Source: a virus
Lineage: Duplodnaviria > Heunggongvirae > Uroviricota > Caudoviricetes
Virus record (IMG/VR): IMGVR_UViG_3300018483_000003
Coordinates: 1 to 6,609 of that record
Length of the DNA: 6,609 nucleotides
Strand: one strand, 5' to 3'
Under the pieces are notes generated by a model. The model worked only from the letters and a program-made list of their open reading frames with translations. It was not told where the DNA came from and searched no databases. Each line of letters starts with the position of its first letter. Position 1 is the stretch's first letter. The position numbers and the translations under genes were made by a program. Of the stretch, positions 1 to 6,609 are shown in pieces.

Positions 1-5
1 GTGCC

Positions 6-31
6 AAAAATAAAGGCCGACTATGCGGCCT
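6..31 (-). terminator. Putative intrinsic terminator downstream of the 100-aa membrane-protein gene
   Basis: Plus-strand GGCCG (15-19) and CGGCC (26-30) form a 5-bp GC stem with a 6-nt loop. On the minus-strand transcript the hairpin is followed by TTATTTTT (complement of plus 6-13). It lies about 68 nt past the ORF stop at 99. Confidence 0.4.
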
Positions 32-98
32 GAAATTACTTAACCAATGATGCTGCATATTCGATAAGGTAAAGTTTTGGAGCAAGCCAAATTTTCAG

Positions 99-401
99 TC
101 AGTCGAAATAATTGAAGAAAACAACAATAGAAGTAATCGCTATTCCTGATGTGACAAGTAGTGATAAAAGAACAATATCTTCATCATCTCCTTTATTCAA
201 TGCAAAAATCATCAGATAAACACACGCTATAATCACCAATACACAGATAGCCTGAATTCCAGCTGATGATACGGCGTGCCACATCAAAAGCTGATGGATG
301 ACATCAGGAATCTGTGCCTGGCTAAATGAAACAGCCGCGTCTATTCCATTACTGGCTTTTTGCAGTAGTTCTACGAGAATCTTGTTTGCTTGTTCTTCCA
401 T
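99..401 (-). CDS. Hypothetical small membrane protein (100 aa, two predicted transmembrane helices)
   Basis: ATG at 401-399 is preceded by GAGGTG (complement of 406-411) at 4-nt spacing. The protein has a hydrophilic N-terminal ~40 aa, then hydrophobic segments VSSAGIQAICVLVIIACVYLMIFAL and LLSLLVTSGIAITSIVVFF separated by the acidic loop NKGDDEDIV. AT-rich relative to the rest of the window by eye. No family recognised. Confidence 0.6.
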   Translation of the reverse strand: MEEQANKILVELLQKASNGIDAAVSFSQAQIPDVIHQLLMWHAVSSAGIQAICVLVIIACVYLMIFALNKGDDEDIVLLSLLVTSGIAITSIVVFFNYFD

Positions 402-511
402 ATCTCACCTCAAATAAGTGGTTTGCTGCCTAATTTCATTTTCTGGCGACCAACACAAGTCACACCCATTTCACTGCGTGGCTTGCTGTAATAAATTCGG
501 TTAGTTCAGAC

Positions 512-534
512 AATAAAAAACCCACCGAAGTGGG
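512..534 (-). terminator. Intrinsic terminator immediately after the 112-aa ORF
   Basis: Minus-strand transcript reads CCCAC-UUCG-GUGGG (plus 521-534), a 5-bp GC stem with a UUCG tetraloop, followed directly by UUUUUUAUUG (complement of plus 511-520). The hairpin abuts the TAG stop at 537-535. Confidence 0.6.
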
Positions 535-873
535 CTATGACCATTTTTTATTTGGATTTCGTTGGTGAGCATGATTAACAACTCTGTGCATTACATCCTC
601 ATATTTTTCATCTTCAATTTTTTCGACATCGCGAGGAAATGGTGTTGCTAATGCTTTGTCAACTTTATCCATTGGGTCTTCATTAATCTTATATTCAGGA
701 CCGTCATCTATAGCATTAAATCCAGGTGTTACACCGTTTTTTAATGCATATGCTATCCTCTTTTCCCATCTCGCTATTCTCCTCCTGTCTCGAGATGTAA
801 GACCTCTATCAGATACTTTTCTGTTTTGTCCGCGGTCAGGATTAACATAAATAGTCTTTTTCACCATAAGCAT
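535..873 (-). CDS. Hypothetical highly charged protein (112 aa from ATG 873; 114 aa if the TTG at 879 is used)
   Basis: ORF in the six-frame track. The ATG at 873-871 lies 2 nt after the N stop codon (TGA, 878-876), suggesting translational coupling; no strong SD. Product is rich in R/K/D/E and I recognise no family. AT-rich, and followed directly by a terminator. Confidence 0.55.
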   Translation of the reverse strand: MLMVKKTIYVNPDRGQNRKVSDRGLTSRDRRRIARWEKRIAYALKNGVTPGFNAIDDGPEYKINEDPMDKVDKALATPFPRDVEKIEDEKYEDVMHRVVNHAHQRNPNKKWS

Positions 874-875
874 AC

Positions 876-1181
876 TCAATAAGCACCGTACGGTAGTTTA
901 CTGTACAATTTTATTTTTTGGACTGCATGTATTTTGTTTCCTAATGGGTTTGAATCCTTGTAATAAATACTTCTATTTTTTCGAACGACTTCTTCTTTCT
1001 TCTTGCAGCAAAGGCTTCCTAGTGAAGCTGCTTTGTCTGCTCTGACGCAACCAGAGAGCTTTAGCGCAATTTTTCGCGCTAGTGCTTCATTACTGCGTCG
1101 CTCGGCAATAAGTTCTGCTCTGCGAGCTTTGTAGCGGCTTTTTGCCGTACCTTTGGATTCTTTCCAGACAATGGTTACCAT
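876..1181 (-). CDS. N: N-type transcription antitermination protein (phage-21-like arginine-rich motif)
   Basis: ATG at 1181-1179 with AAGGAG (complement of 1188-1193) 6 nt upstream. The N-terminus MVTIVWKESKGTAKSRYKARRAELIAERR contains the arginine-rich motif I recall for phage 21 N. The gene lies downstream of boxA/boxB elements and a pL-like promoter. The track ORF extends to 1211 but the longer start lacks an RBS. Confidence 0.8.
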   Translation of the reverse strand: MVTIVWKESKGTAKSRYKARRAELIAERRSNEALARKIALKLSGCVRADKAASLGSLCCKKKEEVVRKNRSIYYKDSNPLGNKIHAVQKIKLYSKLPYGAY

Positions 1182-1291
1182 GATGGTCTCCTTTAAGTGG
1201 CTTTGGCGCATGACGCGTCGAGGTGCTTATCTTCTCGATCGCTGTCTTGCAGCTGCAATTCGCGCCATCCCCAAAACCACTCAAGTTCTGG

Positions 1292-1331
1292 TCTCAACGG
1301 TTAGGTTGAGAGTCCGTTGATGTTAAAGAGC
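1292..1331 (-). promoter_or_regulatory. nutL: boxA (1323-1331) and boxB hairpin (1292-1311)
   Basis: Minus-strand RNA reads GCUCUUUAA (boxA consensus CGCUCUUUA), then UCUCAAC-CUAACC-GUUGAGA, a perfect 7-bp stem with a 6-nt loop. It sits in the N leader between the pL-like promoter and the N start. The same boxA and loop recur at nutR. Confidence 0.7.
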
Positions 1332-1373
1332 CTGCCAATCTGTTCCGTTTGGCTTCCAGCGTCCTGCTGATGG

Positions 1374-1407
1374 CTTAAATTTAAGACTTCTTAATTTATT
1401 GGTCAAG
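1374..1407 (-). promoter_or_regulatory. pL-like promoter with overlapping repressor operator (oL)
   Basis: Minus-strand -35 TTGACC (complement of 1401-1406), 17-bp spacer, -10 TAAATT (complement of 1378-1383). An 18-bp operator ATTTAAGACTTCTTAATT (1379-1396) overlaps the -10 and spacer and matches the oR sites. Confidence 0.55.
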
Positions 1408-1471
1408 TGCATTTTTGAAGAAAACTTAATTTTATGGGCGTGAATTTAGTTTGTCTTTGATTTTTAACGGG

Positions 1472-1497
1472 AAATAAAAAAGGGGCGAAAGCCCCTT
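1472..1497 (-). terminator. Intrinsic terminator overlapping the cI stop codon
   Basis: Stem 1480-1486 (AAGGGGC) pairs with 1491-1497 (GCCCCTT) around a GAAA loop. On the minus strand it is followed by UUUUUAUUU (complement of plus 1471-1479). It lies at the end of cI (stop 1498-1496) and would insulate pL/oL from pRM/pRE transcription. Confidence 0.65.
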
Positions 1498-2146
1498 AAG
1501 GAAGGTTTGCTAGCTTGGCATCAACGACAACGCCAATGATTTTACAGTTCCCATTGATTTCAATCATTGGGTATTGTGGATTGAGTGGTTTCAGGAATTT
1601 TCTACCGGCATCAATAACTAACTTTTTGAATGTCGCCTCGTTTTCTCCTTCAAGTTTGGCGACTACCAGCTTTCCATTACGTGGTTCGACTTCTGGGTCG
1701 ACGAGAATAATCATCCCCTCAGGAATACTCAGTCCTGCCGGGGCAGTCATTGAATCGCCTTTAACGTCGAGCCAAAAAGAGTCTTCAGAACAATCTACCG
1801 TTGTGTCGTACCAGTTATCTATTGCACGCCTATGATATGGCTCTACAGCTTCCATCCAACATCCTGCGCTTACCCAACTAATTAGAGGATACGAACCTCT
1901 TGGATCATGCCTGCTGTGATAGGCAATGTTTGAAAGACTATCCTCTCCTTTCAACAGGTAATCAGGGGAGCACTGCAAAGCCTTGGCTAAGGCCAATAGG
2001 TTTTCGCCATTGGGCTCAGTTTCAGATCGCTCCCATTGGGAAATAGCAACATTAGACACGCCAACCATCTTGCCAAGGGCAGCCTGCCTAATCTTGAGTT
2101 CTTTTCTGCGAGCGCGAATACGCTCACCCATCAGTTGTGTATTCAT
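1496..2146 (-). CDS. cI: CI-type prophage repressor (HTH_XRE N-terminal domain plus LexA/S24-like autocleavage domain; P22 C2-like)
   Basis: 216-aa ORF. HTH motif QAALGKMVGVSNVAISQWE; C-terminal domain with an Ala-Gly cleavage site (VSAGCW), catalytic Ser in GDSM and Lys in KLVVAK. Nearly identical, from memory, to the P22 C2 repressor. Divergent from cro across an operator region. Confidence 0.9.
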   Translation of the reverse strand: MNTQLMGERIRARRKELKIRQAALGKMVGVSNVAISQWERSETEPNGENLLALAKALQCSPDYLLKGEDSLSNIAYHSRHDPRGSYPLISWVSAGCWMEAVEPYHRRAIDNWYDTTVDCSEDSFWLDVKGDSMTAPAGLSIPEGMIILVDPEVEPRNGKLVVAKLEGENEATFKKLVIDAGRKFLKPLNPQYPMIEINGNCKIIGVVVDAKLANLP

Positions 2147-2212
2147 AGTTAAGACATCTTAAATAAACTTGACTTAAGATTCCTTTGGTGGATAATTTAA
2201 GTGTTCTTTAAT
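2147..2212. promoter_or_regulatory. oR region: three repressor operators with pR (rightward) and a pRM-like leftward promoter
   Basis: Three 18-bp sites of form A-TTAAG-N4-CTT-A-T: 2147-2164 AGTTAAGACATCTTAAAT, 2172-2189 ACTTAAGATTCCTTTGGT (weaker second half), and 2195-2212 ATTTAAGTGTTCTTTAAT. Centres are 25 and 23 bp apart. pR has -35 TTGACT (2169-2174) and -10 GATAAT (2191-2196), with cro ATG at 2227. The cI ATG at 2146 abuts the leftmost operator with no SD. Confidence 0.75.
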
Positions 2213-2226
2213 TTCGGAGCGAGTCT

Positions 2227-2412
2227 ATGTACAAAAAAGATGTTATTGACCACTTCGGAACCCAGCGTGCTGTTGCTAAAGCACTAGGCATTAGCGATGC
2301 AGCAGTCTCTCAGTGGAAAGAAGTTATCCCAGAGAAAGACGCCTATCGATTGGAAATCGTTACAGCTGGCGCCCTGAAGTATCAAGAAAGTGCTTACCGC
2401 CAAGCGGCATAA
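2227..2412 (+). CDS. cro: Cro repressor (61 aa, P22-Cro-like HTH protein)
   Basis: ATG at 2227 with GGAG (2216-2219) upstream. HTH motif QRAVAKALGISDAAVSQW. The sequence matches, from memory, P22 Cro almost exactly. First gene rightward of pR. Confidence 0.9.
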   Translation: MYKKDVIDHFGTQRAVAKALGISDAAVSQWKEVIPEKDAYRLEIVTAGALKYQESAYRQAA

Positions 2413-2419
2413 GCAAATT

Positions 2420-2459
2420 GCTCTTTAACAGTTCTGGCCTTTCACCTCTAACCGGGTGA
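2420..2459 (+). promoter_or_regulatory. nutR: boxA (2420-2428) and boxB hairpin (2442-2459)
   Basis: boxA GCTCTTTAA is identical to the nutL copy. boxB is UCACCU-CUAACC-GGGUGA, a 6-bp stem (one G-U pair) with the same CUAACC loop as nutL. It lies between the cro stop (2412) and cII. Confidence 0.7.
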
Positions 2460-2509
2460 GCAAACATCAGCGGCAAATCCATTGGGTGTGCCGCTATAAC
2501 TCAATATCA

Positions 2510-2550
2510 ATATAGGAAAATTAACAAATGGCACAAGCAAGCTACAGCAA
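2510..2550 (-). promoter_or_regulatory. pRE-like CII-activated promoter (TTGC-N6-TTGC motif inside the cII 5' end)
   Basis: Plus strand has GCAA(2537-2540)-N6-GCAA(2547-2550), which is TTGC-N6-TTGC on the minus strand, the CII tetramer site architecture of lambda pRE. A -10-like TATATT follows on the minus strand (about 2512-2517). The position overlapping the cII start matches lambda. Confidence 0.55.
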
Positions 2551-2824
2551 GCCAACACAGCGAGAAATTGATCGCGCTGAAACTGATTTACTCATCAACC
2601 TGTCAACGCTTACCCAGCGCGGTCTGGCAAAGATGATTGGCTGTCATGAATCGAAGATAAGCAGAACGGACTGGAGATTTATTGCTTCGGTTCTGTGTGC
2701 TTTCGGAATGGCATCAGACATCAGTCCGATTAGCAGGGCTTTTAAGTATGCGCTTGATGGACTCACAAAGAAAAAATCCCCGGCTGCCACCGAGGATTCT
2801 GAGCAAATTGATATGCAATTCTGA
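2528..2824 (+). CDS. cII: CII-like transcriptional activator (98 aa)
   Basis: Sits between nutR and the replication genes. The C-terminus KKKSPAATEDSEQIDMQF resembles the lambda CII C-terminus as I recall it (KKRPAATERSEQIQMEF). The central region is HTH-like and the pRE motif is embedded in its 5' end. Confidence 0.75.
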   Translation: MAQASYSKPTQREIDRAETDLLINLSTLTQRGLAKMIGCHESKISRTDWRFIASVLCAFGMASDISPISRAFKYALDGLTKKKSPAATEDSEQIDMQF

Positions 2825-2856
2825 GGTAATTACTGGATCAATCCACAGGAGTAATT

Positions 2857-3003
2857 ATGACAAAACAACTCAGTCCTTACCAGGACAAAATTCACAAACA
2901 CATACTACGTGATCGCTTCCTGTCCAGCTTCAAGCAGCCTGGTCGATTTCGGGCTGAGTTGGAAAAGGTGAAGCTGATGCAGAAGGAGAAAGGTCATGAG
3001 TAA
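2857..3003 (+). CDS. Possible small basic protein (48 aa) between cII and the O-like gene
   Basis: ATG at 2857 with GGAG (2848-2851) 5 nt upstream. Product [48 protein letters not shown]. Its stop (3001-3003) overlaps the O-like start (2996) as ATGAGTAA. Not in the supplied track because of its length. I recall an orf48 annotated at this position in P22, which if correct supports it. Confidence 0.4.
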
Positions 3004-3895
3004 CATATCTAATCTAGCCGAAGCCAGAGAGGCCAGAAGGCTACAACAACCGCATCAAAGCAGCGGTAAGGGGTATGCCTTGCTGCACCGTAAAATTATG
3101 GATGTGCCGTTTTACAAGGACGCAGAAGCAGCGCATCTGTGGGTTCACTTAATCCTCAAAGCAAAGCATACGCCTGAGTATGTAATGACTGACGCAGGAG
3201 AAATTCTGGTAGGCAGAGGGAAGCTACTTGGCGGTAGAAACTCTCTGGCGTTTGAAACAGGACTCAAACCAGATCGCGTTCAGTACCTGCTTAGAAAGTT
3301 CAAAAAACTCGGCATGATTGACTGGGTTTCACACGGTAAATTCTCAGTTTTCTCGGTAGAGAAATATGACGATTATCAGTCAAATTTTGTACCAGCAGAT
3401 TACCAGCAAATTACCACCTCAAAGCCAGCAATACCAATGCCTGCAAGCAATACTGTACCAGCAGATTACCAGCAAATTACCACAGATAAAGAATATAATA
3501 ATATTATCTCTAATACTGACGTATTAGAGAGTGCCACAGCAGACAAAAAGTCTGACAAGAAAAAACCTTCCGTTAGCTGTCAGGATGTTGTCGATGCTTA
3601 CCACGAAATCCTTCCTGAAGCGCCAAGAATCCGCGCACTGAATGACAAGCGTAAAAACCAGATCCGAACGTTCTGGCGCAAAGCCGGAGTGATAACCCGC
3701 CAGCTTGACGGGCATGGGTTCACGATGCAGGACTGGAGAAATTATTTGAGCTACGTAGGCGAAAATTGCCGATGGATGTTCGAAGAGCGCCCAAACCATC
3801 AACGCGGAACCGTCTGGCACAAAAAGGGATTTGATTTCCTGCTTAACGACAATACCTACCTGAAAGTTCGTGAGGGTGAACACGATGACCGATAA
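2996..3895 (+). CDS. Replication initiation protein (lambda O / P22 gp18 analogue) with DnaT-like C-terminal domain
   Basis: 299-aa ORF with AAGGAG (2983-2988) 7 nt upstream. It occupies the O position directly upstream of a DnaB-family helicase and contains internal iterons plus an AT-rich tract. The C-terminal region ([17 protein letters not shown]...WRKAGV) resembles DnaT/primosomal-type loader domains as far as I can recall. Confidence 0.8.
3389..3530. repeat. Iteron-like direct repeats plus AT-rich tract inside the O-like gene (putative ori)
   Basis: An identical 29-bp sequence GTACCAGCAGATTACCAGCAAATTACCAC occurs at 3389-3417 and 3455-3483. Each copy holds three TACCA(G/C) motifs at 11-bp phasing (3390, 3401, 3412 and 3456, 3467, 3478). 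An AT-rich tract follows at 3484-3530 (GATAAAGAATATAATAATATTATCTCTAATACTGACGTATTAGAG). Confidence 0.6.
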
Positions 3896-5321
3896 TTTTT
3901 ATGCGCCGCCCCATAGCATCGAGGCAGAGCAGGCGGTGATTGGTGGATTGCTTCTGGATGATGACAGCAGTGAGCGCGTCCAGAAAGTTCTGGCGATGCT
4001 GAAGCCTGATTCATTTTACGGCCGACCACACAAAATCCTTTTCGAAGAAATAACCAGAATGCACCGGGAGCAAAAGCCAGTAGATGGCCTGACGCTTTTC
4101 GATGAACTGGAGCGTAAATCGTTAACGGCGTCTGTTGGCGGTTTTGCTTATATCGCTGAGATCGCAAAAAACACGCCAAGCGCAGCAAACATCGTTGCCT
4201 ATGCAATGCAGGTTCGTGAAACCGCAATGGAACGCTACGCCATAAACCGCATGACTGAAGCGACGGAATTGCTCTATTCCCGCAACGGAATGACTGCAAC
4301 GCAGAAGTACGAAGCTATTCAGGCGATTTTCACGCAACTGACAGACCATGCAAAAACCGGATCGCGTCGCGGCCTTCGCTCATTTGGTGAGGTCATGGAA
4401 GACTGGGTTAGCGACCTTGAGAAGCGATTTGACCCGTCAGGCGAACAACGAGGAATGAGCACGGGGATCCCATCGCTGGACAGGATGCTGTCACCGAAAG
4501 GTCTGGTGAAAGGCTCTCTGTTTGTCATTGGCGCTCGCCCTAAGATGGGGAAAACGACGCTATACAGCCAGATGGCAATCAACTGTGCAGTGCATGAGAA
4601 AAAGCCTGCTCTGATGTTCAGCCTTGAAATGCCAGGTGACCAGATACTGGAAAAACTGGTAGGGCAGAAGTCAGGTGTTAACCCGAATATTTTTTACCTT
4701 CCGGCGACAAATGACGCTGATGACGGCTATCAGGGTGATTACGATGGTGACTTCAACAGGGCGATCGAAACAGCCAATCGCTTGAGTGAAATCGACATGC
4801 TTTACATCGACGACACGCCGGGATTATCTCTGGCTCAAATCGTCAGCGAAAGCCGTCGAATCAAGCGAGAAAAAGGATGTGTTGGCATGATTCTGGTCGA
4901 TTACCTGACACTAATGACCGCTGAAAAGGCCGATCGCAACGACCTTGCTTACGGCATGATCACCAAAGGACTGAAGAACCTTGCCAAAGAGCTTGATTGC
5001 GTTGTTGTGCTTCTGACGCAGCTTAACCGCGCATTGGAAAGCCGAACCAATAAACGCCCATTACCAAGTGACTCGCGAGATACAGGGCAGATTGAACAGG
5101 ATTGCGATTATTGGGTTGGGATCCATCGGGAAGGTGCTTTTGATGACAGCGTTCCTCCTGGTGAAACCGAACTAATCCTTCGCCTCAATCGTCATGGCAA
5201 TACCGGCACGGTGTATTGCATACAGGCAAATGGCGCTATTTATGACACAGACCAACAGTCTGCTGAAATGCGCCGCCGTGAACGCGAGGAACCGCAGTCC
5301 AAGAAGAAAGGAGGATTCTGA
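3885..5321 (+). CDS. DnaB-family replicative DNA helicase (478 aa)
   Basis: ATG at 3885 with GAGGGTG (3872-3878) upstream, overlapping the O-like stop by 11 nt. N-terminal DnaB signature PHSIEAEQAVIGGLLLD, Walker A GARPKMGKTT and Walker B-like MILVDYLTLM. GTG codons at 3870 and 3876 are possible alternative starts. Confidence 0.9.
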   Translation: MTDNFYAPPHSIEAEQAVIGGLLLDDDSSERVQKVLAMLKPDSFYGRPHKILFEEITRMHREQKPVDGLTLFDELERKSLTASVGGFAYIAEIAKNTPSAANIVAYAMQVRETAMERYAINRMTEATELLYSRNGMTATQKYEAIQAIFTQLTDHAKTGSRRGLRSFGEVMEDWVSDLEKRFDPSGEQRGMSTGIPSLDRMLSPKGLVKGSLFVIGARPKMGKTTLYSQMAINCAVHEKKPALMFSLEMPGDQILEKLVGQKSGVNPNIFYLPATNDADDGYQGDYDGDFNRAIETANRLSEIDMLYIDDTPGLSLAQIVSESRRIKREKGCVGMILVDYLTLMTAEKADRNDLAYGMITKGLKNLAKELDCVVVLLTQLNRALESRTNKRPLPSDSRDTGQIEQDCDYWVGIHREGAFDDSVPPGETELILRLNRHGNTGTVYCIQANGAIYDTDQQSAEMRRREREEPQSKKKGGF

Positions 5322-5349
5322 TGACCATCTACATCAGTGAGCTTGTAAC

Positions 5350-5381
5350 AGGCCTGCTGGTAATCGCAGGCCTTTTTATTT
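5350..5381 (+). terminator. Strong intrinsic terminator after the helicase gene (tR2-like position)
   Basis: Perfect 8-bp stem AGGCCTGC (5350-5357) pairing with GCAGGCCT (5366-5373), an 8-nt loop, then TTTTATTT (5374-5381). It sits between the helicase stop (5321) and the next ORF (5398). Confidence 0.7.
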
Positions 5382-5397
5382 GGGGGAGAGGGAAGTC

Positions 5398-5580
5398 ATG
5401 AATCTTGACGAGCAAGATGCACAAACTATTAGCTCATACATAAGGGCATCAAGACCAGATTACAAAGGTCCGGTATTCGTAGATTTATCTCGCCTTGAGG
5501 AGATTTACATGTGGGAAGCAAAGCTACGTACGCATCTTTTTATTCGTAAGATGACTAGCAACATTACAAAACCAATGTAA
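5398..5580 (+). CDS. Hypothetical protein (60 aa)
   Basis: ATG at 5398 preceded by purine-rich GGGAGAGGGAAG (5383-5394). The track ORF starts at an upstream TTG (5380). Product MNLDEQDAQTISSYIRASRPDYKGPVF...; no family recognised. Confidence 0.5.
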   Translation: MNLDEQDAQTISSYIRASRPDYKGPVFVDLSRLEEIYMWEAKLRTHLFIRKMTSNITKPM

Positions 5581-5594
5581 CTGGAGAGGTGAAT

Positions 5595-5810
5595 ATGAGC
5601 ACACTCGCAGACCTTATTCATGCCGATATGGCGGAAGATGGAGCAAGGCGTAATAGGTACTGGAAATCATCAAGCCTTCCAGTTTGTGAAAGATTCAACC
5701 ACAGGCCAAAACCAAAACGTAGCCGACGAGACAAAGTATTGAAAAAACTCATGCAAATTAACATGGCTGGTTTTGTCAGATTCGTGAGTGAAACGACTAA
5801 CGGGGATTGA
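5595..5810 (+). CDS. Hypothetical basic protein (71 aa)
   Basis: ATG at 5595 with GGAGAGG (5584-5590) upstream; GTG at 5589 is an alternative start. Contains a very basic segment RPKPKRSRRDKVLKK. The stop (5808-5810) is 1 nt before the next ORF's ATG. Confidence 0.5.
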   Translation: MSTLADLIHADMAEDGARRNRYWKSSSLPVCERFNHRPKPKRSRRDKVLKKLMQINMAGFVRFVSETTNGD

Positions 5811-5811
5811 T

Positions 5812-6078
5812 ATGGACGAATCAAGAAAGCAGTTTGAAGAATGGTTTGAAAATTACACCGGATGTGATCCTAAAAATAAAATATACGCCAATATGGTTGA
5901 GATGTATTGGCAAGCGTGGCAGGCATCGCGAGCAGCTATCGAGATTGAGTGTCCTGGAAAAAGAGAGCGTGAGGCATTTTCTACCGATTTCGAGGATGGG
6001 GTCACATTTGGTTATAACGACGCAATTAGTGAATGCGAAGGACGGATTCGCGCTGCTGGAGTCAAAGTGAAGGAGTGA
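5812..6078 (+). CDS. Hypothetical acidic protein (88 aa)
   Basis: ATG at 5812 directly after the previous stop; the track uses GTG at 5788. Product MDESRKQFEEWFENYTGCDPKNKIYANMVEMYWQAWQ...; Trp- and acid-rich. The stop is followed by the ninB RBS. Confidence 0.55.
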   Translation: MDESRKQFEEWFENYTGCDPKNKIYANMVEMYWQAWQASRAAIEIECPGKREREAFSTDFEDGVTFGYNDAISECEGRIRAAGVKVKE

Positions 6079-6080
6079 CG

Positions 6081-6491
6081 ATGAAGCAAACAATCTTCCT
6101 CCGAACTAAGCAACAACAGCAAGCCGCAATCAACGCCATCCTCGCAACACCACTCGATAAAGACAAGCCAGTCACCATCCGCATTACTGACTACAAGCGC
6201 AACCTTGACCAGAACGCAAAATTTCACGCGATGCTGGCGGATATCGCTCGTCAGGTTCAATGGTGCGATAAATGGCTAAAACCAGAACAATGGAAGGTTT
6301 TGTTGATCAGCGGTCATGCAGTGGCAACAAAACAGGAAGCTGATGTTTTGCCCGGCCTTGAAGGCGAATACGTCAACATTCGCGAAAGCAGCGCGCAGAT
6401 GAGTGTGAAGCGTATGGCAAGTCTAATTGAGTACACGACAGCATGGGCTATTGGTCAGGGTGTCAGATTTACCGACAGGAGGTACGAATGA
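6081..6491 (+). CDS. ninB: NinB (Orf-family recombination mediator, 136 aa)
   Basis: ATG at 6081 with AAGGAG (6070-6075) 5 nt upstream. Motifs [33 protein letters not shown] resemble lambda NinB/Orf as I recall it. The track's upstream extension (6033) overlaps the preceding gene and lacks an RBS. Confidence 0.85.
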
Positions 6492-6609
6492 GACGACAGC
6501 GACGAAGTATCACCGACATCATCTGCGAAAACTGCAAATACCTTCCAACGAAACGCTCCAGAAATAAACGCAAGCCAATCCCAAAAGAATCTGACGTAAA
6601 AACCTTCAA
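6488..6609 (+). CDS. ninE: NinE (5' part only; truncated by the window end)
   Basis: ATG at 6488 overlaps the ninB stop as ATGA. The translation [40 protein letters not shown] matches my recollection of the lambda NinE N-terminus. The ORF is open to the window end. Confidence 0.7.

Follow-up and report, generated by a model that had tools for sequence, protein, structure and literature searches.

Three small genes in the hypervariable slot between the replicative helicase gene and ninB of a lambdoid prophage

Introduction

What are the three small, tightly packed open reading frames (ORFs) that separate the replicative helicase gene from ninB in the IMG/VR virus record IMGVR_UViG_3300018483_000003 (Caudoviricetes), and what might they do? 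The DNA analysed here, referred to as the window, comprises positions 1 to 6609 of that record (6609 nt), and the three reading frames are named ORF A, ORF B and ORF C in the order in which they are found (Table 1). An earlier note, made from the sequence alone, had described three ORFs of 60, 71 and 88 aa between the helicase gene and ninB, in the place where lambda carries ren, one of them basic and one acidic and rich in Trp, with no resemblance to Ren and no recognised family for any of them. The positions and sizes are exactly as claimed. The basic member is ORF B, which contains RPKPKRSRRDKVLKK and has an isoelectric point (pI) of 10.35 and a net charge of +6.7, and the acidic one is ORF C, with a pI of 4.7, a net charge of -6.5 and 3 Trp. 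The small-gene cluster had also been called variable, and the slot is indeed hypervariable among relatives. However, both ORF B and ORF C belong to families that are defined in Pfam, namely PF23975 (DUF7301) and PF26207 (Phage_phiTE_015), respectively, and for these two the claim that no family could be recognised has to be withdrawn.

The slot is bounded upstream by the helicase gene and downstream by NinB. As the replication genes of the window are followed by NinB at 6081, it corresponds to the P-ren-ninB interval of lambda, as had been proposed. Lambda Ren lies in the same position between a replication gene and ninB, is similar in size and is non-essential (PMC8022706), but shares no sequence similarity with ORF A, ORF B or ORF C. 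Tight packing with ATGA overlaps is a general property of nin regions (PMC8022706) and the short spacers seen here (14 nt between ORF A and ORF B, 1 nt between ORF B and ORF C, and 2 nt between ORF C and NinB) are therefore not special to this locus. Under laboratory conditions, phages can do without the nin genes (PMC5630979). The prophage is a lambdoid one of the mEp235/HK022 type, and the locus is the hypervariable slot that separates its replication genes from ninB.

ORF A, ORF B and ORF C are conserved in related prophages

Chance ORFs of this size are frequent in all frames of the window, and the case that the three are genes consequently rests on comparison with relatives. The exact proteins were found in public collections on 277 (ORF A), at least 1000 (ORF B) and 532 (ORF C) contigs, which are from E. 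coli, Salmonella, Shigella and other Escherichia species. For a closer comparison, 49 loci sharing an ORF A sequence tag were used, 45 from IMG/VR and 4 from annotated records. In all of them ORF A and ORF B are paired with fixed spacing, and are at least 87 % and at least 95 % identical to the window, respectively. The neighbours of the pair vary, with two helicase types, an HNH endonuclease or a primase found upstream, and NinB types or Lar downstream. Of 50 sequences (the window and the 49 loci), 42 have an open ORF C-family frame at the position of ORF C; among the remaining eight, three run off contig ends, two have a diverged ORF B-ORF C junction, and in three the conserved ends of ORF C enclose a variant with a deletion or an unrelated insert.

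The ratio of nonsynonymous to synonymous polymorphism (pN/pS) was 0.12 for ORF B and 0.33 for ORF A, compared with 0.6-2.0 for out-of-frame controls, though these and all further pN/pS values given below are derived from few, non-independent haplotypes. An Rfam scan of the whole window at E<=1 returned just one chance snoRNA match, located outside the region, and the conserved ORF A-ORF B block is thus not explained by a structured RNA. Judged by comparison with relatives, all three ORFs are genuine, conserved genes, and they are very probably real accessory genes of the lytic cycle. The expectation in the earlier note that the frames should be conserved in relatives is borne out for ORF B and ORF C, but only in part for ORF A: both the Stx-type phages examined and 10 of the 45 IMG/VR loci have a nonsense codon at position 35 of this frame.

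Content of the slot in related phages

Comparison of the slot across related prophages had been proposed as a check, and a survey anchored on the terminator hairpin that precedes ORF A (see below) recovered at least 99 IMG/VR loci, which are a sample. The content was found to vary by phage. About half of the 99 loci listed have an empty slot and proceed straight to NinB or Dam. An ORF C-family gene is present in 36, usually after a gene for phrog_1165 (a membrane protein of 52-54 aa) or phrog_7185 (53 aa) rather than after ORF A and ORF B, and 15 contain a DUF7301 gene. Further occupants are Lar-like restriction-alleviation genes (phrog_599), Dam and HNH endonucleases; the next gene after the ORF C relative in Stx2-1717 is Lar-like. 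Among the occupants with a functional annotation, the Lar-like and Dam genes are tied to restriction-modification, whereas the HNH endonucleases are not. Because its content differs in this way among the 99 loci listed, the slot is a dispensable, combinatorial accessory region.

The Lar-like and Dam genes share with ORF A, ORF B and ORF C their location in this slot downstream of the NinA/tR2 boundary and their nature as small accessory genes. However, the three ORFs are not homologous to them, do not contain the zinc-ribbon motif of Lar and do not match the corresponding PHROGs.

ORF C is a mosaic member of the PF26207 family

A precomputed assignment to PF26207.1 (Phage_phiTE_015) is available for a sequence identical to ORF C (P0001) and for all 120 listed homologues. 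ORF C also matched phrog_343 (E=6.3e-29), and in another E. coli genome a gene of the homologous region has been named 'phiTE_015 family protein' by the Prokaryotic Genome Annotation Pipeline (PGAP). Members of PF26207 include Sf6 gp48, HK022 gp59, 933W L0091 and mEp235 gp47, and ORF C precedes NinB as in HK022, Sf6 and mEp235. In a profile search of 1.84 billion representatives, the family comprised at least 585 clusters at 50 % identity (E<=1e-3). Using tblastn, it was found in 327 phage records, which include P22-like and lambda-like temperate phages as well as the virulent Skatevirus, Bas81 and Pakpunavirus. The relatives in virulent phages (Seszw, Bas81 and PaoP5) are located among small early genes, and the Bas81 copy is near a Lar-like gene. 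Conservation at the protein level extends to Pseudomonas and Aeromonas phages, in which the neighbours are different.

In 103 relatives that are 28-54 % identical, F8, W36 and G83 are invariant and R5, S39, R40, P48 and K87 are at least 90 % conserved; all of these residues are present in the window protein. Ninety per cent of the family members are net acidic. A Pfam scan of the 103 relatives, using a set that did not contain the PF26207 model, revealed no shared family. Some PF26207 members, and positions 1-35 of the PHROG profile, include an N-terminal extension of about 36 aa with a CxxCxGxG motif that ORF C lacks. This extension, present in P0152, P0176 and about 10 other relatives, has a DnaJ-like CxxCxGxG...CxC motif (for example, MSKCQKCNNTGMCDSGG...ECDC), and no Pfam match to it was found.

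The ORF C proteins of enterobacterial prophages consist of five segments, namely a conserved start (MDESRKQFEE), a variable N module, a conserved centre ((Q)AWQASRAAIE), a variable C module and a conserved end (RAAG(V/I)KVKE). At least six types of N module and at least six types of C module are combined freely. The N type of the window (WFENYTGCDPK...) was seen with five C types, and the C type of the window (ECPGKRE...) with seven N types. The window protein is therefore one of many combinations, and it is no more than 65 % identical to any record from an isolated phage. Across 45 loci, 28 distinct ORF C proteins were found while the adjacent ORF B stayed at least 95 % identical. In one IMG/VR locus (L024), an unrelated, coiled-coil-like insert lies between the conserved MDESRK... 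and ...GIKVKE ends, and three others (L018, L035 and L044) encode a short version of 63 aa that is without the central motif and the C module. As the insert and the deletion are located between the same ends, these ends behave as exchange points. The last codons of ORF C carry the Shine-Dalgarno (SD) sequence of the next gene, NinB. In L045, an ORF C-family gene is found about 415 nt past the ORF A start, and a frameshift near the 3'-end fuses this relative to the downstream Lar-like zinc-ribbon protein. There, the +1 frame of the conserved ...RAAGVKVKE coding sequence is translated as CWSQSEGV(T/S)M and runs into the start of the next gene.

The AlphaFold2 model of ORF C obtained with the alignment of 103 relatives has a predicted local distance difference test (pLDDT) score of 94.1 and a predicted template modelling (pTM) score of 0.67, compared with a pLDDT of 74.8 for a model from a shallow alignment of 20 sequences. 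Three helices (3-16, 23-42 and 59-81) and two short strands (44-45 and 85-86) are predicted. No solved analogue was found when the family profile was compared with PDB sequences and the model was used in fold searches, and a fold search of BFVD with the model returned only uncharacterised members of the family.

ORF B is a member of DUF7301

ORF B matched PF23975 (DUF7301) over profile positions 1-64 of 65, with an E-value of 1.6e-31 and a score of 108.6 bits against a gathering cut-off of 27, and also matched phrog_1785 (E=4.7e-35). In complete genomes the homologue is named 'DUF7301 family protein' by PGAP. Members of DUF7301/phrog_1785 include ST64T Orf-69 and Stx2-1717 gp30. ORF B matches this family over its full length and is 100 % identical to copies in Stx phages; it represents the common subtype with nothing distinctive. 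The gene is preceded by an SD sequence (GGAGAGG). Set against its own out-of-frame values of 0.8-2.0, the pN/pS of ORF B indicates purifying selection, and its variable sites are distributed 6:7:16 over the three codon positions.

At least four divergent DUF7301 subtypes (35-63 % identity) occupy the same slot in other prophages, where they occur without ORF A. The residues E14, R18, R21, Y22, S26, L28, P29, E32, P38, R45, D46, L49 and L52 are invariant among the subtypes, which share the core R-Y-W/R...S-x-L-P...P...R-D-(R/K)-V-L-x-x-L. Neither ORF B nor the DUF7301 profile gave a significant match to PDB sequences. A search for DUF7301 in contigs from species-representative genomes gave one spurious match only, and DUF7301 is thus absent from those genomes. 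ORF B is a small basic protein in which an R-Y-W...S-x-L-P...P-R-D-(R/K)-V-L motif is conserved and, with low certainty, it would most simply be a nucleic-acid binder.

ORF A is less secure

ORF A matched phrog_21123 over its full length (E=1.4e-40) and has a pI of 8.1, but no match was found in Pfam, NCBIfam or PDB sequences. An SD-like sequence (GAGAGGG) lies 6-7 nt upstream of its start. It is lineage-restricted and occurs only alongside the window type of DUF7301. ORF A had appeared to be very rare (11 clusters), and this was overturned by the presence of the exact sequence on 277 contigs. In a protein collection clustered at 90 % identity, ORF A is grouped under an unrelated 122-aa NinX/DUF2591 representative and, for this reason, the homologue search badly under-counted it.

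ORF A is exactly 60 codons long in 35 of the 45 IMG/VR loci. In the other 10, and in the Stx-type phages phi330 (L001, 2552-2656) and 1717 (L002, about 2540-2740), codon 35 is changed from GAG to TAG, and 1717 has an additional frameshift caused by a 1-nt insertion. Codons 1-34 have a pN/pS of 0.06 and codons 35-60 one of 0.64, and in the 3' half the variable sites are distributed 5:6:2 over the codon positions. Coding on the opposite strand or in a shifted frame was considered for this variable half and rejected, as the codon-position pattern fits no other frame. ORF A is less secure as a gene than ORF B, being half-constrained and frequently truncated.

One explanation, which applies to ORF A only, is that it is not a functional protein of 60 aa but either a decaying gene, or a short N-terminal peptide or leader that couples translation of NinA to that of ORF B, with the 3' half left to drift. 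The difference in constraint between the two halves, the recurrent stop at codon 35 and the extra frameshift in 1717 would all fit, as would the occurrence of divergent DUF7301 subtypes without ORF A and the omission of ORF A by PGAP from two complete genomes despite an intact frame. Fusions of ORF A to NinA also exist. In a few genomes (P0125, P0126 and P0128), the GGGGG run that precedes ORF A differs by 1 nt, which joins the two into a single product of 86-87 aa, though the change could also be a homopolymer sequencing error; such a fusion would tether ORF A to a membrane helix. On the other side, in 35 of 45 loci ORF A has kept its 60 codons with no insertions or deletions despite several substitutions, and it has a good SD sequence, a full-length PHROG match and gene calls on hundreds of contigs. 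We regard this explanation as unlikely. In the reading that we prefer, itself weakly supported, ORF A would be a peptide auxiliary to the window-type ORF B module; only its first 34 residues would be constrained, and it would be decaying in Stx-type phages.

A NinA-like ORF, a tR2-like terminator and proposed expression of the cluster

A short hydrophobic ORF, overlooked in the earlier note, occupies the 76 nt that separate the helicase stop (5321) from ORF A. Both ends of this ORF overlap its neighbours, the ATG with the stop codon of the helicase gene (TGATG) and the stop codon with the start of ORF A (ATGA). Counterparts in phrog_5907 are annotated as NinA in mEp234, and as 'similar to phage 21 NinA' or boundary sequence bsq6 in Sf6. 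By its profile match, its position after the helicase and the tR2-like hairpin that it contains, the 26-aa ORF qualifies as a putative NinA. The hairpin (5350-5373) is G+C-rich, is followed by a run of T and encodes the GLLVIAGL stretch of the NinA-like ORF. Its Sf6 counterpart carries the annotation 'terminator, homology to phage lambda tR2', and the one in mEp235 is recorded as a rho-independent terminator. The arrangement thus resembles that of NinA in phage 21, P22 and Sf6 and of tR2 in lambda, with the ORF matching phrog_5907 and the hairpin matching the tR2-like terminator of Sf6. The folding z-score of the terminator is not significant by itself. In phi330 and 1717, the first part of NinA is missing, and the 3' end of an HNH endonuclease gene, which reaches the terminator hairpin, stands in its place.

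This hairpin, upstream of ORF A, is the sole terminator-like site within 5000-6609. No promoter-like site was seen in the same interval using a simple sigma-70 consensus scan, which weak promoters could escape. The ATGA and TGATG overlaps and the spacers of 1-14 nt between the genes are signs of operon linkage. Together, the lack of a promoter-like site and the single terminator upstream point to transcription of the cluster from pR, with no promoter of its own, and to N-mediated read-through. N, loaded at nutR, would carry RNA polymerase through the tR2-like terminator into the three genes, which would then be delayed-early functions, active in lytic growth and silent in the lysogen. A putative nutR lies just after cro, and mEp235 has a boxA annotated at the homologous position. 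The boxB-like hairpin may be of the phage 21 type, which would suit the GTAKSRYKARRAELIAERR motif of the N-like protein.

Table 1. Features of the window discussed in the text
Feature	Position	Strand	Description
ORF A	5398-5580	+	60 aa, ATG 5398 to TAA 5580; ORF list and sequence
ORF B	5595-5810	+	71 aa, ATG 5595 to TGA 5810; ORF list and sequence
ORF C	5812-6078	+	88 aa, ATG 5812 to TGA 6078; ORF list and sequence
NinA-like ORF	5321-5401	+	26-aa hydrophobic ORF (MTIYISELVTGLLVIAGLFIWGRGKS); phrog_5907 E=1.3e-18, 26 of 27 positions; grand average of hydropathy 1.13
tR2-like intrinsic terminator	5350-5383	+	8-bp stem AGGCCTGC/GCAGGCCT, 8-nt loop, then TTTTTATTT
DnaB-type replicative helicase (P22 gp12/HK022 P type)	3870-5321	+	Pfam DnaB_C E=2.8e-60, DnaB E=1.2e-30
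NinB/Orf recombination mediator	6081-6491	+	PF05772 NinB E=4.2e-54; phrog_72
Putative nutR	2419-2459	+	boxA-like TGCTCTTTAAC 2419-2429; boxB-like hairpin TCACC-TCTAACCG-GGTGA 2442-2459
Nun-like (HK022-type) transcription termination factor	535-879	-	ends ...NPNKKWS; annotated so in mEp235
N-like antiterminator ORF	876-1211	-	weak PF25694 N_peptide match; adjoins the Nun-like ORF as in mEp235

Relationship of the window to known phages

Positions 409-5320 of the window are 98.9 % identical at the DNA level to phage mEp235 (92 % of the 1-5320 query), and 62 % of the same query is 97.7 % identical to HK022. In addition to the genes in Table 1, the window encodes a C2-type repressor as in P22, Cro, CII, a DUF2740 ORF and an O-like initiator. 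At its left edge (99-401, minus strand) there is a 100-aa ORF with a hydrophobic C-terminal half, for which no Pfam match was found.

Searches for similarity to proteins of known function

No BLASTP alignment of ORF A or ORF B with lambda Ren (NP_040633) was obtained, and comparison of the ORF C family profile with Ren using hhalign gave a probability of 0.3 %. Homology of the three ORFs to Ren was accordingly rejected, in agreement with the earlier note. That note had also named homology to characterised nin-region proteins as the finding that would count against it, and when such homology was looked for none was found. No family of known function was identified in Pfam, PHROGs, NCBIfam, PADLOC, PDB sequences or fold searches. 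Defence models in PADLOC-DB gave no match at E<=1 to ORF A, ORF B, ORF C or NinA, and the Pfam scan revealed no toxin or antitoxin domains. The pattern of occurrence also does not fit a toxin-antitoxin system, as ORF C is mostly found without ORF B, and DUF7301 subtypes are found without ORF A or ORF C. There were no matches to anti-defence proteins (Ocr, ArdA, Gam, Ral, Lar, Acr, Gad, Tad etc.) in the general PHROGs, Pfam and PDB-sequence scans, which did not include a dedicated anti-defence library. Every database relative is labelled 'hypothetical' and all three families are listed as of 'unknown function'. No paper was found in literature searches for DUF7301, PF26207, phiTE_015 or peptide strings, and the ORF sequences are not in the supplements of an accessory-gene screen (PMC12373910).

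Possible roles of the three genes

We tentatively interpret the cluster as three translationally coupled, delayed-early accessory genes that follow a NinA-like ORF and its terminator and are dispensable and directed at the host or at competitors, an interpretation to which we give somewhat less than even weight. A counter-defence or host-takeover role in particular is, if anything, slightly more tentative. The evidence for anti-defence or host modulation is circumstantial; it is compatible with an accessory or counter-defence role without proving one. The hints are that Lar-like (phrog_599), Dam or HNH genes take this place in other phages, that ORF C is mosaic and very diverse, that most members of its family are net acidic, and that relatives of ORF C are found in the early small-gene clusters of virulent phages. 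ORF C would be a small acidic protein with three predicted helices, in which a conserved scaffold (F8, W36, S39, R40, P48, G83 and K87) may bear two exchangeable surface modules. These modules could bind and neutralise a variable host or prophage protein, with ORF C acting as a counter-defence inhibitor or a decoy. The most specific version, namely that the ORF C family has a fold not yet seen in the PDB and a scaffold with two exchangeable specificity modules that are shuffled by recombination to retarget an inhibitor at variable proteins of host immunity or of rival prophages, with DUF7301, with or without ORF A, as a second and independent counter-defence or host-takeover factor, is doubtful.

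Several points weigh against a role of this kind. Functional evidence of any kind is absent, all database relatives are 'hypothetical', and no paper deals with the families. Mosaicism can arise by homologous recombination at conserved linkers and needs no diversifying selection, and the next gene relies on the conserved 3' end of ORF C for its ribosome-binding site. The presence of Lar and Dam as neighbours is guilt by association only. The promoter scan was a simple sigma-70 consensus scan, and the pN/pS figures stem from few, non-independent haplotypes.

Apart from the decay or leader function considered above for ORF A, a role for ORF C, and perhaps ORF B, as an accessory of replication or recombination that works with NinB/Orf or with the helicase, its modules being co-adapted to exchangeable partners, was considered and is improbable. 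ORF C is nearly always directly upstream of NinB in lambdoid prophages and carries the ribosome-binding site of NinB, and ORF B is basic, as would be expected of a nucleic-acid binder. One ORF C relative in a Pseudomonas prophage is near a DNA methylase and an integrase, and another is near NinG and MazG. However, co-adaptation of the modules to NinB type was not supported, as one C-module type can precede different NinB types as well as Lar. Furthermore, about half of the related phages (among the 99 loci listed) have NinB without ORF C, the relatives in Seszw, Bas81 and PaoP5 have no NinB nearby, and comparisons of sequence and fold found no similarity of ORF C to replication or recombination proteins.

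Variable small-gene cassettes of prophages often encode exclusion or defence functions, and the three genes could likewise be morons expressed from the prophage that determine superinfection exclusion, a toxin-antitoxin pair or anti-phage defence. The juxtaposition of basic ORF B and acidic ORF C and the constant pairing of ORF A with the window type of ORF B might be read in this way. We consider this quite unlikely. The promoter upstream and terminator downstream that morons have as their own were not seen for the cluster in the scans of 5000-6609, and the genes are instead embedded in the pR operon, downstream of a terminator and with overlapping start and stop codons. There was also no PADLOC match and no toxin or antitoxin domain in Pfam, ORF C relatives occur in strictly virulent phages, and ORF C is widespread without ORF B, as are DUF7301 subtypes without ORF A.

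Finally, the idea that the conserved pieces of ORF C are only DNA linkers for recombination ('boundary sequences') in a functionless reading frame, which could draw on the coincidence of its start, centre and end with the exchange points of the variable modules, the unrelated insert between the same ends in L024, the second use of its 3' end as a ribosome-binding site and the boundary sequence annotated nearby in Sf6, is very improbable and is largely refuted, since the motifs (F8, W36, S39, R40, P48, G83 and K87) are conserved across 103 relatives at 28-54 % identity, including those from Pseudomonas and Aeromonas phages with other neighbours, and are thus more than linkers, and since the predicted fold is confident and compact (pLDDT 94) and the family spans at least 585 clusters at 50 % identity.

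Conclusions

The genes, their families and the hypervariable slot are already catalogued, and identical proteins are present on hundreds of public contigs. In this respect the locus is an ordinary one that holds a typical set of uncharacterised nin-region accessory genes. What goes beyond the existing annotation is the combinatorial two-module mosaic of ORF C, its confidently predicted fold without a solved analogue, and the truncation of a half-constrained ORF A. In practical terms, the locus supplies a short, well-defined list of three candidates for anti-defence or host-takeover screens, headed by ORF C. If ORF C is a modular defence inhibitor, it would represent a widespread counter-defence family, shared by temperate and virulent phages of Enterobacteria, Pseudomonas and Aeromonas, and this would account for the variability of the nin-proximal slot.

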